Shown: positions 12,088-34,136 of the stretch, in pieces
How the letters are laid out: every line of letters starts with the position of its first letter
How positions within the stretch are numbered: the stretch's first letter is position 1
From: Escherichia coli
GTDB lineage: Bacteria; Pseudomonadota; Gammaproteobacteria; Enterobacterales; Enterobacteriaceae
Assembly (NCBI RefSeq): GCF_013122565.1
Contig: NZ_CP053258.1
Direction: 5' to 3' (one strand)
DNA length: 64,000 nucleotides
Position numbers and translations under genes: made by a program
The notes under the pieces: generated by a model
What the model was told of the DNA's origin: nothing
The model's database searches: none
The model's input: only the letters and a program-made list of their open reading frames with translations

Positions 12088-12754
12088 TCCTTCCTCAATC
12101 TTGAGTAACCCCGTCGTTGCAGGGTTACTCAATTCGTCCTGATTATACGCACTGTCATGGTGCAATTGCTTCAAATTAAAACTCTGGTCTGACTTCAAAT
12201 AATTATCATATTATTTATCTGCGTAACGGGATACCAGAAAAAATATTTACCCTATTAATTTATTAGGATGTTTACATCGGATTTTTGATTAAGCGTGGTA
12301 TTATTTATTAGCGAAACGTTTCTCTCTTGATTTTTTTACTCATTCATCAATTTTTCTTATTTTAAATTTACAATACCTTTGGGATTGACTTCTCTTTGGG
12401 GTAATTGATAGCCGTTAACTGCCTGTTTTATGAGAAAAAGTAATATAACTTTTTATTCATTGCATAGCAGAAAATGTGATATTGCACGCACTATGTAATA
12501 ACTTCTCCCACTGGCCTGGAACAACTGAACTTATTGAACTATGTTAGAAAATACGCCAGTTTAAGTATCTGTCTGAACTGGCAAGGTTAAGCACAATGAT
12601 ATATCGGCGCGTATTCCGTTGCATAAGTGTGCAAAAAAAGTGGAAGACGTATCGAGATTTGTGCGTCTGATCGAGACATGTTTAAAAATGGCTTGCCATA
12701 ATTAACGTTGTATGTGATAACAGATTTCGGGTTAAACGAGGTACAGTTCTGTTT

Positions 12755-12898
12755 ATGTGTGGCATTTTCAGTAAAGAAGTCCTGAGTAAACACGTTGACG
12801 TTGAATACCGCTTCTCTGCCGAGCCTTATATTGGTGCCTCATGCAGTAATGTGTCAGTTTTATCTATGTTATGCCTGCGGGCGAAGAAAACAATCTAA
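12755..12898 (+). CDS. yobF: Small protein YobF, 47 aa, co-transcribed with cspC
   Basis: ATG at 12755 translates to [47 protein letters not shown]; stop 12 nt before the cspC start. Below the ORF-track size cutoff. Confidence 0.85.
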
Positions 12899-12910
12899 GG
12901 AATTTTTCAA

Positions 12911-13120
12911 ATGGCAAAGATTAAAGGTCAGGTTAAGTGGTTCAACGAGTCTAAAGGTTTTGGCTTCATTACTCCGGCTGATGGCAGCAAAGACGTGTTC
13001 GTACACTTCTCTGCTATCCAGGGTAATGGCTTCAAAACTCTGGCTGAAGGTCAGAACGTTGAGTTCGAAATTCAGGACGGCCAGAAAGGTCCGGCAGCTG
13101 TTAACGTAACAGCTATCTGA
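12911..13120 (+). CDS. cspC: Cold-shock-family protein CspC
   Basis: 69-aa [40 protein letters not shown] with RNP1/RNP2 cold-shock motifs. Confidence 0.95.
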
Positions 13121-13166
13121 TCGAATCCACTGATCTGAAGTGTGAATACGCTTCAATCTCGCTATA

Positions 13167-13193
13167 AAGCCTCGTCGAATGCGAGGCTTTTTA
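13167..13193 (+). terminator. Rho-independent terminator downstream of cspC
   Basis: Stem gcctcg / cgaggc with 7-nt loop followed by a T5 run. Confidence 0.65.
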
Positions 13194-13285
13194 CTTTGCT
13201 TTATCTTCGCTCCAGTCGTTCGGATATTTGCCCGCCGCGTGATTCGCGTTACACTTGCGGCCTTTAGTATCCTGCCGGAGTTGTC

Positions 13286-30528: not shown

Positions 30529-30600
30529 AATATTATGTTAACAACATGTTTATCACTTGGGGTTGCGATGACGACGAACACGCATTTTAGAGGTGAAGAA

Positions 30601-32286
30601 TTGAAGAAGGTTTGGCTTAACCGTTATCCCGCGGACGTTCCGACGGAGATCAACCCTGACCGTTATCAATCTCTGGTAGATATGTTTGAGCAGTCGGTCG
30701 CGCGCTACGCCGATCAGCCTGCGTTTGTGAATATGGGGGAGGTGATGACCTTCCGCAAGCTGGAAGAACGCAGTCGCGCGTTTGCCGCTTATTTGCAACA
30801 AGGGTTGGGGCTGAAGAAAGGCGATCGCGTTGCGTTGATGATGCCTAACTTATTGCAATATCCGGTGGCGCTGTTTGGCATTTTGCGTGCCGGGATGATC
30901 GTCGTAAACGTTAACCCGTTATATACCCCGCGAGAGCTTGAGCATCAGCTTAACGATAGCGGCGCATCGGCGATTGTTATCGTGTCTAACTTTGCTCACA
31001 CACTGGAAAAAGTGGTTGATAAAACCGCCGTTCAGCACGTAATTCTGACCCGTATGGGCGATCAGCTATCTACGGCAAAAGGCACGGTAGTCAATTTCGT
31101 TGTTAAATACATCAAGCGTCTGGTGCCGAAATACCATCTGCCAGATGCCATTTCATTTCGTAGCGCCCTGCATAACGGCTACCGGATGCAGTACGTCAAA
31201 CCCGAACTGGTGCCGGAAGATTTAGCCTTCCTGCAATACACCGGCGGCACCACAGGTGTGGCTAAAGGCGCGATGCTGACTCACCGCAATATGCTGGCGA
31301 ACCTGGAACAGGTCAACGCCACCTATGGGCCGTTGCTGCATCCAGGTAAAGAACTGGTAGTAACGGCGCTGCCGCTGTATCACATTTTTGCCCTGACCAT
31401 TAACTGCCTGCTGTTTATCGAACTGGGTGGGCAGAACCTGCTTATCACTAACCCGCGTGATATTCCAGGGTTGGTAAAAGAGTTAGCGAAATATCCGTTT
31501 ACCGCTATCACTGGCGTTAACACCTTGTTCAATGCGTTGCTGAACAATAAAGAGTTCCAGCAGCTGGATTTCTCCAGTCTGCATCTTTCCGCAGGCGGAG
31601 GGATGCCTGTTCAGCAAGTGGTGGCAGAACGTTGGGTGAAACTGACCGGACAGTATCTGCTGGAAGGCTATGGCCTGACCGAGTGTGCGCCGCTGGTCAG
31701 CGTTAACCCGTATGATATTGATTATCATAGTGGCAGCATCGGTTTGCCGGTGCCGTCGACGGAAGCCAAACTGGTGGATGATGATGATAATGAAGTACCA
31801 CCGGGTCAACCGGGTGAGCTTTGTGTCAAAGGACCGCAGGTGATGCTGGGTTACTGGCAGCGTCCGGATGCTACAGATGAGATCATCAAAAATGGCTGGT
31901 TACACACCGGCGACATCGCGGTAATGGATGAAGAAGGATTCCTGCGCATTGTCGATCGTAAAAAAGATATGATTCTGGTTTCCGGTTTTAACGTCTATCC
32001 TAACGAGATTGAAGATGTCGTCATGCAGCATCCTGGCGTACAAGAAGTCGCGGCTGTTGGCGTACCTTCCGGCTCCAGTGGTGAAGCGGTAAAAATCTTT
32101 GTAGTGAAAAAAGATCCATCGCTTACCGAAGAGTCACTGGTGACTTTTTGCCGCCGTCAGCTCACGGGCTACAAAGTACCGAAGCTGGTGGAGTTTCGTG
32201 ATGAGTTACCGAAATCTAACGTCGGAAAAATTTTGCGACGAGAATTACGTGACGAAGCGCGCGGCAAAGTGGACAATAAAGCCTGA
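30601..32286 (+). CDS. fadD: Long-chain-fatty-acid-CoA ligase FadD
   Basis: ORF 30535-32286; start trimmed to TTG at 30601 ([23 protein letters not shown]), 561 aa, AMP-binding motifs. Confidence 0.9.
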
Positions 32287-32305
32287 GCGTTAAGTCAGTC
32301 GTCAG

Positions 32306-32331
32306 ACGCCGGTTAATCCGGCGTTTTTTTT
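32306..32331 (+). terminator. Rho-independent terminator downstream of fadD
   Basis: Stem acgccgg / ccggcgt with ttaat loop followed by a T8 run. Confidence 0.7.
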
Positions 32332-32355
32332 GACGCCCACTAAAGAGAATACAAT

Positions 32356-33483
32356 TTGAATTACCAAATGATTACCACGGACGATGCGCTGGCTTCTTTG
32401 TGTGAAGCCGTCCGTGCCTTTCCGGCGATAGCCCTGGATACTGAATTTGTTCGTACGCGCACTTATTACCCGCAGCTGGGGTTGATTCAACTTTTCGATG
32501 GCGAGCATCTGGCGCTAATTGATCCTCTCGGGATCACCGACTGGTCACCGCTGAAAGCGATCCTGCGCGATCCGTCCATCACAAAATTTCTCCATGCAGG
32601 CAGTGAAGATCTGGAAGTGTTCCTCAATGTCTTTGGCGAATTACCACAACCCTTGATTGACACGCAAATCCTTGCTGCCTTCTGCGGACGCCCGATGTCA
32701 TGGGGTTTCGCTTCCATGGTGGAAGAGTATTCCGGCGTTACGCTGGACAAGAGTGAATCGCGCACCGACTGGCTGGCCAGACCGCTGACCGAACGTCAGT
32801 GTGAATACGCAGCGGCGGATGTCTGGTATCTGTTACCGATCACCGCCAAGCTTATGGTAGAAACGGAGGCCTCCGGCTGGCTACCTGCGGCGCTGGATGA
32901 ATGCCGCCTGATGCAAATGCGTCGTCAGGAAGTCGTTGCGCCGGAAGATGCCTGGCGTGATATCACCAATGCCTGGCAGTTACGCACACGCCAACTGGCC
33001 TGTCTGCAACTGTTAGCCGACTGGCGACTGCGCAAGGCGCGAGAGCGCGATCTGGCGGTGAACTTTGTCGTGCGTGAAGAGCATTTGTGGTCGGTAGCGC
33101 GTTATATGCCGGGAAGTTTAGGCGAACTGGACAGCCTGGGTTTATCCGGTAGCGAAATCCGCTTTCACGGTAAAACGCTGCTGGCGCTGGTGGAAAAAGC
33201 GCAGACATTGCCGGAAGAGGCCTTACCGCAGCCGATGCTTAACCTGATGGACATGCCGGGTTATCGTAAAGCGTTTAAAGCGATTAAGTCGCTGATTACT
33301 GACGTGAGCGAAACGCACAAGATCAGCGCCGAATTGCTGGCATCGCGTCGGCAAATCAACCAACTGCTGAACTGGCACTGGAAACTGAAACCGCAGCACA
33401 ATTTGCCGGAGCTGATTTCCGGCTGGCGTGGTGAGCTGATGGCGGAAGCATTACACAATTTATTGCAGGAATATCCGCAGTAA
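32356..33483 (+). CDS. rnd: Ribonuclease D
   Basis: 375-aa ORF starting MNYQMITTDDALASLCEAVRAFPAIALDTEFVRTRTYYPQLGLIQ (DEDDy exonuclease plus HRDC). Confidence 0.95.
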   Translation: MNYQMITTDDALASLCEAVRAFPAIALDTEFVRTRTYYPQLGLIQLFDGEHLALIDPLGITDWSPLKAILRDPSITKFLHAGSEDLEVFLNVFGELPQPLIDTQILAAFCGRPMSWGFASMVEEYSGVTLDKSESRTDWLARPLTERQCEYAAADVWYLLPITAKLMVETEASGWLPAALDECRLMQMRRQEVVAPEDAWRDITNAWQLRTRQLACLQLLADWRLRKARERDLAVNFVVREEHLWSVARYMPGSLGELDSLGLSGSEIRFHGKTLLALVEKAQTLPEEALPQPMLNLMDMPGYRKAFKAIKSLITDVSETHKISAELLASRRQINQLLNWHWKLKPQHNLPELISGWRGELMAEALHNLLQEYPQ

Positions 33484-33536: not shown

Positions 33537-33950
33537 CTACAAATCCAACACCAGGCGTTTACCCTTCGCACGCGAACAACAGATCAACATACTTTGCTGG
33601 CTGGCACGCTCTTCATCGCTAAAATACTGATCCCGATGGTCAGCTTCACCTTCCAGTATTGCCGTTTCGCAGGTTCCGCATACCCCTTCACGACATAAAC
33701 ATTCCACTTTCGCGGCTTTATTATTTTCAATAACCTGCAAAATAGTCATCTCTTCCGGCACCACAAACTCTTTTCCGGAACGGGCAAGCACCAGGGTAAA
33801 TGCATCGCCGGTTTTGTCTTCGATAGCAAATTGCTCAAAGTGCAGCGTATCGGCGGCGATGTCCAGACGCGCAGCTTCACTTCTTACCGCTTCAATTAGC
33901 GCCTCGGGGCCACAGGTATAAACGTGTGTGCCAGGTTCGATATCCGCCAT
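33537..33950 (-). pseudogene. yeaX: 3' fragment of yeaX (cntB-like oxidoreductase): end of NAD-binding domain plus plant-type 2Fe-2S ferredoxin domain
   Basis: ORF 33537-34016 (159 aa). From MADIEPGTHVYTCGPEALIEAVRSEAARL onward it looks like the C-terminus of an FNR-type reductase followed by a 2Fe-2S domain (CREGVCGTCE ... LICC). The N-terminal FAD/FMN-binding domain is absent and yeaW/yeaV are not found upstream. Confidence 0.6.
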
Positions 33951-33992
33951 TGACATCCTCCACGTCCTGAAGGACGAGGAGGATGTCAATGG
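33947..33992. repeat. 46-bp near-perfect palindrome at the 5' edge of the yeaX fragment
   Basis: ccattgacatcctccacgtcc-tgaa-ggacgaggaggatgtcaatgg: two 21-nt arms with one mismatch. The minus-strand reading of the left arm gives GGAGG, 6 nt spacer, ATG (the MADIEPG start). Confidence 0.85.
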
Positions 33993-34136
33993 CAGGGTAT
34001 GAGTTGTATATTGCATTTAACGAATTAATTATTTTTGTGTTATATAAATTAAACAATTAAGAATTCGGAAAGCCATAAAACACGAAACGGAAACAATAAA
34101 AGGTGAAATGACGCAGGTTATTAACTGCAAAGAACG

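Follow-up and report, generated by a model that had tools for sequence, protein, structure and literature searches.

The closest described parallels to the RNA discussed here are MalH, CpxQ, SdhX and SroC, which stem from the 3' UTRs of malG, cpxP and sucD and from the 3' region of gltI, respectively. Like SroD, all four are processed mRNA 3' ends, share the intrinsic terminator of their parent mRNA and are TEX-sensitive, and MalH is, again like SroD, transient at the transition to stationary phase. These RNAs have, however, conserved seeds and validated targets, of which SroD has neither, and the Hfq chimeras of CpxQ, MalH and SdhX number 2423, 293 and 46, respectively, versus 7 for fadD (PMC7213987). 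Another 3'-UTR RNA from an mRNA of fatty acid metabolism is FarS of Vibrio cholerae, which derives from fabB and controls fadE; it differs from SroD in parent gene and organism, in its Hfq dependence and in having a demonstrated feed-forward function (PMC7148568), and kinship in sequence is not expected. A further described system occupies the very same DNA: the enhancer in the leader of rnd (Zhang & Deutscher 1989, 1992) and the SroD terminator are, in physical terms, one hairpin and U-run, with the difference that the enhancer was described as a cis element of the rnd mRNA, whereas the SroD hairpin is the end of a small RNA.

SroD itself was described in E. coli in 2003 and is catalogued in Rfam (RF00370) and in EcoCyc under G0-9384, an identifier which also appears in published tables (Adams 2021, eLife supplement). 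A passage of PMC5874903 citing Vogel 2003 gives a Northern band of about 86–90 nt for it. Published data portray SroD as a transient RNA at the exit from exponential growth, with upregulation in the transition phase (PMC4676190), and PMC8313858 names FadR as its regulator while giving its function as “Unknown, generated from 3' UTR”. Neither of the phenotypic studies linked it to a trait: the fadD phenotype seen in mlaA* cells did not depend on sroD (PMC5874903), and sroD overexpression caused no biofilm and no motility phenotype (PMC4606813). In Klebsiella, the level of the 87-nt SroD was unchanged without hfq (1.27-fold change; PMC3136514).

In the window, as we call the whole 64-kb stretch of E. 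coli DNA analysed here, a scan with Rfam 15 at the gathering threshold returned two matches, one of which is RF00370 at 32245-32330 (+), covering model positions 1-86 of 86 and thus its full length, with 115.2 bits (E = 1.4e-22; the gathering score of this model is 50). The feature is SroD, an already known RNA, and nothing material separates this locus from the catalogued one: the full model match, the flanking genes fadD and rnd, the terminator and the Term-seq 3' ends are all the same. The RNA begins 42 nt inside fadD, where 32245 opens codon -13, takes in the last 13 codons (39 nt) and the stop, and continues for 44 nt into the 3' UTR; 25 nt separate its end from rnd. In K-12 coordinates, it corresponds to 1888017-1888102 on the minus strand. 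Its 5' end at 32245 is a predicted one, given by the boundary of the Rfam model. The 401 nt around SroD were found in 5425 of 5426 complete E. coli genomes, each time between fadD and rnd. As a side observation, the RefSeq record of K-12 (NC_000913.3, 1886000-1891000) carries no sroD feature between these two genes, though both Rfam and EcoCyc recognise sroD.

The initial annotation, which was made from the sequence alone, had tentatively named an sRNA called SroD at fadD/rnd and had proposed an Rfam scan as a check; the suggestion proved right, as the scan placed sroD at 32245-32330 and the literature agrees. Its description of a terminator closing fadD 20 nt after the stop was accurate as well, since the G+C core of the hairpin begins 20 nt 3' of the stop. 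The interval it had assigned, 32287-32355, needs adjustment: it does hold the 3' half of SroD, but it is the whole fadD-rnd intergenic region, and SroD is not purely intergenic. Because the RNA begins 42 nt inside fadD, this interval covers only its 3' half. In terms of significance, the result confirms the recovery of a catalogued small RNA from raw sequence and leaves the known biology unchanged.

The parent gene fadD encodes the long-chain-fatty-acid--CoA ligase. Its reading frame spans 30535-32286, and the K-12 annotation of 1686 nt puts the start at 30601, giving a CDS at 30601..32286 (+) which matches the FadD equivalog NF006523 (NCBIfam) over residues 23-582 with 1171 bits. The stop codon TGA (32284-32286) is followed by a 17-nt spacer before the stem-loop. 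Downstream lies rnd (RNase D; 32356..33483, +), which shares the hairpin and U-tract and matches the RNase D equivalog NF008089 over 1-375 of 375 residues when counted from the TTG at 32356. The rnd ribosome-binding site (32343..32358, +) comprises AAGAG at 32343-47 and the TTG start codon at 32356-58. Public RNase D proteins come in two lengths, 375 aa (TTG start) and 371 aa (ATG four codons downstream), and the shorter form is the main E. coli cluster (P0001, 4349 members); its frequency implies that many automated annotations miss the TTG start backed by the NCBIfam equivalog. A minus-strand reading frame at 32302-32508 (68 aa), which overlaps the rnd start, was treated as spurious. Within the rnd CDS, a Term-seq table lists for one condition an RNA 3' end at K-12 position 1887883 (- strand), i.e., window position 32464, 108 nt into the gene.

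Intrinsic termination sets the 3' end of SroD, at a conserved hairpin of 9 bp with a run of eight U behind it. The stem-loop AGACGCCGG-TTAAT-CCGGCGTTT at 32304-32326 (+), which ends fadD and SroD and is also the leader stem-loop of rnd, was identified by scan, fold and RNAalifold. By consensus scan it has nine pairs, six of them G-C, and a loop of five. The scan by itself proves nothing, as the two terminator-like sites that it reported in 1.5 kb are no more than shuffled sequences contain (1.6). The evidence comes from folding (-14.9 kcal/mol, z = -4.47, with none of 200 shuffles as good) and from comparison: across 62 distinct Enterobacteriaceae sequences, 99.6% of the cells of the hairpin are paired, two pairs are altered on both sides in a compensatory manner (C-G to U-A and G-C to A-U), and RNAalifold keeps this hairpin as the sole helix. 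Sequence and Term-seq ends identify the U8 tract at 32324..32331 (+) as termination site and 3' tail of SroD; no other U-rich run precedes the Shine-Dalgarno sequence of rnd. A run of T5-T9 is kept in 78/78 loci, interrupted in most of them by an A (TTTTTTAT).

Across three conditions, Term-seq in K-12 revealed 3' ends on the - strand at 1888017, 1888018 and 1888020, which the tables assign to sroD/fadD and place 27-29 nt upstream of the rnd ORF (Adams 2021, eLife supplement). Conversion to the window (32356 + 1887991 - coordinate) places them at 32330, 32329 and 32327, all within the U-run, and the flanking sequences printed in the table are identical to the window. The discrete transcript end that the initial annotation had expected near 32331 is therefore found at 32327-32330. 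Its suggestion of a 3'-UTR-derived RNA ending at this terminator also gains from these ends and from the TEX sensitivity of the RNA: the fadD 3' UTR is listed among putative 3'-UTR sRNAs as TEX-sensitive (Iosub 2020, supplement 5; PMC7213987), which means that the RNA carries a 5' monophosphate and is processed rather than primary. The same supplement counts 7 chimeras for the fadD 3' UTR, 6 of them with mRNAs; it is absent from the RIL-seq S-chimeras and from Salmonella TIER-seq, where fadD is not among the RNase E-dependent 3' UTRs (PMC7213987, supplement 5).

A conserved SroD promoter upstream of 32245 was considered and rejected, as the codons there vary freely, no conserved promoter-like hexamers are present and the RNA is TEX-sensitive. 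GAGAAT (32240-45) was likewise dismissed as a -10 element, its final T being C in many genera. No rows at these coordinates were present in Cappable-seq data for a transcription start site of rnd or SroD, and SMRT-Cappable-seq gave nothing. Hfq-CLASH also recovered one chimera each of Spot 42 (spf) and GadY with the fadD fragments GAGAATTACGTGACGAAGCGCGCGGCAAAGTGGA and ATTACGTGACGAAGCGCGCGGCAAAGT (window 32240-32273, +), which reach across the 5' end of SroD; their predicted energies are weak (-7.1 and -11.9 kcal/mol). Both fragments start upstream of 32245, by 1 and 5 nt, and hence derive from a longer fadD RNA.

For the comparative analysis, one genome per species with an RNase D was sampled, which yielded 80 Enterobacteriaceae loci; the fadD stop could be placed in 78. 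The results cover the Enterobacteriaceae, and a protein search aimed at more distant RNase D loci (Yersinia, Vibrio) had, among the matches listed, only Citrobacter and Salmonella. The gene context is the same in all 78 loci, with SroD on the strand of fadD, overlapping the fadD 3' end and upstream of rnd, and the intergenic distance is 67-74 nt in 74/78. Hairpin, T-run and AAGAG are kept throughout, and rnd starts with TTG in 74 loci and GTG in 4. Among 20 divergent Enterobacteriaceae loci, ranging from E. albertii to Cedecea and Siccibacter, 18 reached at least the gathering score of the sroD model (54-109 bits).

Conservation within SroD is uneven. The spacer between stop codon and hairpin is its least conserved part: it is common to Escherichia, Salmonella and the C. 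freundii group only, and is unrelated in Enterobacter, Klebsiella, Kluyvera and Cedecea. A seed conserved across the SroD family was not found in the spacers of the 78 loci. The inner structure drawn by Rfam is weakly supported too, as its two inner helices (15-17/56-59 and 19-21/37-39) are 72% and 71% paired among the 62 distinct sequences. RNAalifold drops both of them, and the inner pair 20-38 swaps between G-C and C-G, yet is unpaired in 32 sequences.

Two lineages carry additional DNA between fadD and rnd. In the Citrobacter amalonaticus group (L011, 1289-1469, and L019), the 20-nt hairpin is present twice in identical form (ACGCCGGGTGAATCCGGCGT; spacing of 161 nt) with a 141-nt insert in between; the first copy has lost its T-run, and the copy adjoining rnd keeps it. 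Besides inverted repeats (TGAGGTGATC/GATCACCTCA), the insert features a hairpin resembling a terminator, and its appearance suggests a small element, mobile or duplicated, with the terminator hairpin as its target. In Dryocola boscaweniae (L080, 1276-1475), the insertion measures about 190 nt; a separate terminator, AAAGCCGG-TACTA-CCGGCTTTTT at 1299-1325, serves fadD, and a second, similar hairpin with U6AU directly precedes rnd (1449-1475). The sroD model stays below the gathering score at this locus.

Synonymous constraint is strong in the coding part of SroD. When codon constraint was examined over the last 120 codons of fadD in the 78 loci, 8 of the last 16 codons were invariant at the nucleotide level (R-15 CGA, E-14 GAA, R-12 CGT, D-11 GAC, E-10 GAA, K-6 AAA, D-4 GAC and N-3 AAT), compared to 0 of 101 non-Met/Trp codons upstream (Fisher p = 1.9e-8). 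Such a difference cannot be explained by constraint on the protein. At the SroD 5' end, the block CGTGACGAAGC (32248..32258, +; fadD codons -12 to -9) is invariant in every column of the 62 distinct sequences, and the synonymous sites of its CGT, GAC and GAA are fixed in all 78 loci.

A possible partner of this 5' block is the variable spacer. In 14 of 15 spacer lineages, which share <70% identity, the complementarity between a 16-nt 5' block and the spacer exceeded that of shuffled spacers (mean z = -1.27, Wilcoxon p = 6e-5). Sliding a 16-nt block along 240 nt of fadD placed the minimum at 32245, 39 nt before the stop, with a mean z of -1.19 and negative values in 15/15 lineages. The registers of the pairing differ by genus (e.g., GCUUC/GAAGC, GUCACG/CGUGAC and UCGUCA/UGACGA). 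These sequence comparisons support a closing helix of 5' block and spacer, by which the processed RNA would be protected at its 5' end, and in this alignment such a helix fits better than the inner helices drawn in the Rfam structure. As the 5' block never varies, the argument builds on energy statistics against shuffles and not on column-by-column covariation.

The constraint in the last 16 fadD codons exceeds the needs of a decay by-product and could reflect either a real RNA function or an rnd promoter embedded in the gene. Zhang and Deutscher reportedly located the rnd promoter in 1989, ahead of a G+C hairpin and the eight U next to it. A candidate at 32249..32277 (+), within fadD, consists of a -35 element GTGACG (32249-54), a 17-nt spacer and a -10 element GACAAT (32272-77). 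The pattern GTGACG-N17-nAnAAT is present in 78/78 loci, even where C-terminal residues of FadD differ, and four of the invariant synonymous sites fall within its hexamers. The promoter scan did not report this candidate because it matches 8 of 12 consensus positions, and the 17-nt spacing is trivially conserved in a coding region without indels. We therefore treat an rnd promoter embedded at 32249-32277 as an unproven candidate; searches of the literature on RNase D and its UUG start found no description of an rnd promoter. TTGACG (32330) with TACAAT (32350) was rejected in this role, as the spacer is 14 nt and transcription would start inside the CDS. The helix and the promoter may both contribute to the constraint at once.

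The hairpin and U-run appear to serve rnd as well. According to passages in PMC5934652 and PMC7769764 citing Zhang & Deutscher 1992, a U-rich sequence acts as translational enhancer of the UUG-initiated rnd mRNA. In the window, the corresponding arrangement is present, with T8 at 32324-31 followed by AAGAG at 32343-47 and TTG at 32356. The separate fadD terminator of Dryocola and the duplicated hairpin of Citrobacter indicate that hairpin and U-run stay with rnd, and this retention, seen at the level of sequence, fits the reported enhancer role.

As to action in trans, the 3' UTR spacer GAGCGTTAAGTCAGTCGT (32285..32302, +) is the segment found in Hfq-CLASH chimeras with yccS and hence the candidate pairing region; the published data list 6 fadD::yccS hybrids at -29.9 kcal/mol (Iosub 2020, supplement; PMC7213987). 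Recomputing the duplex gave 18 contiguous pairs (15 Watson-Crick, 3 G-U) with yccS codons 92-97 and the same energy of -29.9 kcal/mol, and none of 18,241 segments of 49 nt from both strands of the 64-kb window was as low. Comparison with yccS from six other taxa, in which the gene-wide fraction of identical codons is 0.41-0.44, showed no co-conservation of the site with the SroD seed: the site codons identical to E. coli number 0/6 in C. freundii, 0/6 in C. amalonaticus, 2/6 in E. fergusonii and 4/6 in Salmonella, and C. freundii has the same SroD spacer as E. coli despite its 0/6. Since the site is not co-conserved and the spacer is genus-limited, an SroD-yccS interaction would be lineage-specific at best and cannot explain the conservation across the family.

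In our view, this known RNA is probably a processed, terminator-protected 3' fragment of the fadD mRNA, likely a by-product of decay, whose hairpin and U-run also serve rnd. According to this model, the fadD mRNA would be cut at about 32244/32245, and the 3' piece would survive thanks to the terminator hairpin, which guards it against attack from the 3' side. A second helix between the 5' block (32245-32260) and the spacer (32287-32303), shifting its register between lineages, could shield the 5' end. SroD would then most likely be a stable by-product of fadD mRNA decay with weak Hfq binding and no seed common to the family, possibly with lineage-specific partners such as yccS in E. coli. Hairpin and U8 would serve two genes, ending fadD and SroD on the one hand and, on the other, acting as leader and translational enhancer of the UUG-initiated rnd 25 nt downstream. 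The small number of Hfq chimeras, the hfq independence in Klebsiella, the missing phenotypes and the genus-variable spacer amount to a weak or absent signature of a regulator. The same observations bear on the view that SroD belongs with CpxQ, SdhX and MalH as a true Hfq-associated 3'-UTR sRNA acting in trans, which is freed upon fadD induction and pairs via its spacer GAGCGUUAAGUCAGUCGU with targets, e.g., the yccS coding region, altering their expression. The 6 CLASH hybrids and the energy of the 18-pair yccS duplex, unmatched in the background, would be consistent with it. So would the synonymous constraint, which is strong over the coding part, the identical UGAGCGUUAAGUCAG shared by Escherichia, Salmonella and the C. 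freundii group, and a hairpin with U8 that resembles an Hfq-type tail, together with ARN-rich sequence between nt 31 and 54. However, no U-rich stretch directly precedes the hairpin, only 7 chimeras exist in all and none in RIL-seq, SroD is not Hfq-dependent in Klebsiella, the screens in mlaA* cells and for biofilm and motility gave no phenotype, the yccS site is not co-conserved, and Enterobacter, Klebsiella, Kluyvera and Cedecea have unrelated spacers, which makes a dedicated regulator unlikely.

A short RNA at this position could also be a prematurely terminated rnd leader, transcribed from a promoter in the fadD 3' end, with the element acting as rnd attenuator. The position reported for the rnd promoter, upstream of hairpin and eight U, points in this direction, along with GTGACG-N17-GACAAT in 78/78 loci, the four invariant synonymous sites inside its hexamers and the hairpin and U-run that remain with rnd in Dryocola. 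Yet SroD starts at 32245, upstream of the candidate promoter, whose transcript would be about 46 nt long and not 86; the RNA of the fadD 3' UTR is TEX-sensitive and hence not primary, the hexamers match 8/12 consensus positions at a trivially conserved spacing, and expression tracks fadD regulation, with FadR listed as regulator (PMC8313858). We regard this scenario as very improbable. Even less credible is an ordinary terminator alone, with sroD representing random decay fragments and its conservation reflecting coding constraint on FadD: the missing sroD annotation in the current RefSeq K-12 record, the function listed as “Unknown” (PMC8313858) and the Rfam inner helices paired at 71-72% across the family would agree with it, but discrete 3' ends in three Term-seq conditions, a short RNA in the TEX data, invariant synonymous sites in 8/16 versus 0/101 codons and a complementarity signal specifically positioned at the SroD 5' end all argue against it. 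Rather improbable, in our view, is the broadest reading, namely that the last 45 nt of fadD plus the 3' UTR form a multi-purpose element that combines FadD C-terminus, SroD closing helix, rnd promoter and terminator/rnd enhancer with an action in trans on yccS in E. coli. If true, the 18-nt spacer of SroD acting on yccS, which encodes a putative transporter of the FUSC family, would link fatty acid uptake to yccS. When weighing whether SroD merits a functional study, the synonymous constraint, the apparent register-shifting helix and the hairpin and U-run apparently shared with rnd could offer guidance, as could the finding that yccS, the sole target candidate from high-throughput data, comes without evolutionary support.

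Apart from SroD, two further features of the window were noted. The second Rfam match, “cspA thermoregulator” at 12735-13195 (+) with 139.6 bits, is not cspA. It covers two reading frames, 12755-12898 (47 aa) and 12911-13120 (a 69-aa protein of the cold-shock family), which by map position we take to be yobF-cspC; the model fits their coding part well and the 5' leader poorly. Downstream of rnd, an 88-nt segment (33950-34037) stands in place of 3,253 bp of K-12 (1883145-1886397), comprising yeaV, yeaW and the first 553 nt of yeaX. This junction occurs in 0 of 5,426 complete E. coli genomes and may be a scar, whether natural or engineered, or an artefact of the assembly. It is a near-perfect palindrome, CCATTGACATCCTCCaCGTCC-TGAA-GGACGaGGAGGATGTCAATGG (33947-33992), whose 26-nt core was found neither in the metagenome collection nor in any of the loci retrieved. 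The 61 nt around it (33940-34000) fold at -45.7 kcal/mol, and on the yeaX sense strand the palindrome presents GGAGG 8 nt before an in-frame ATG.
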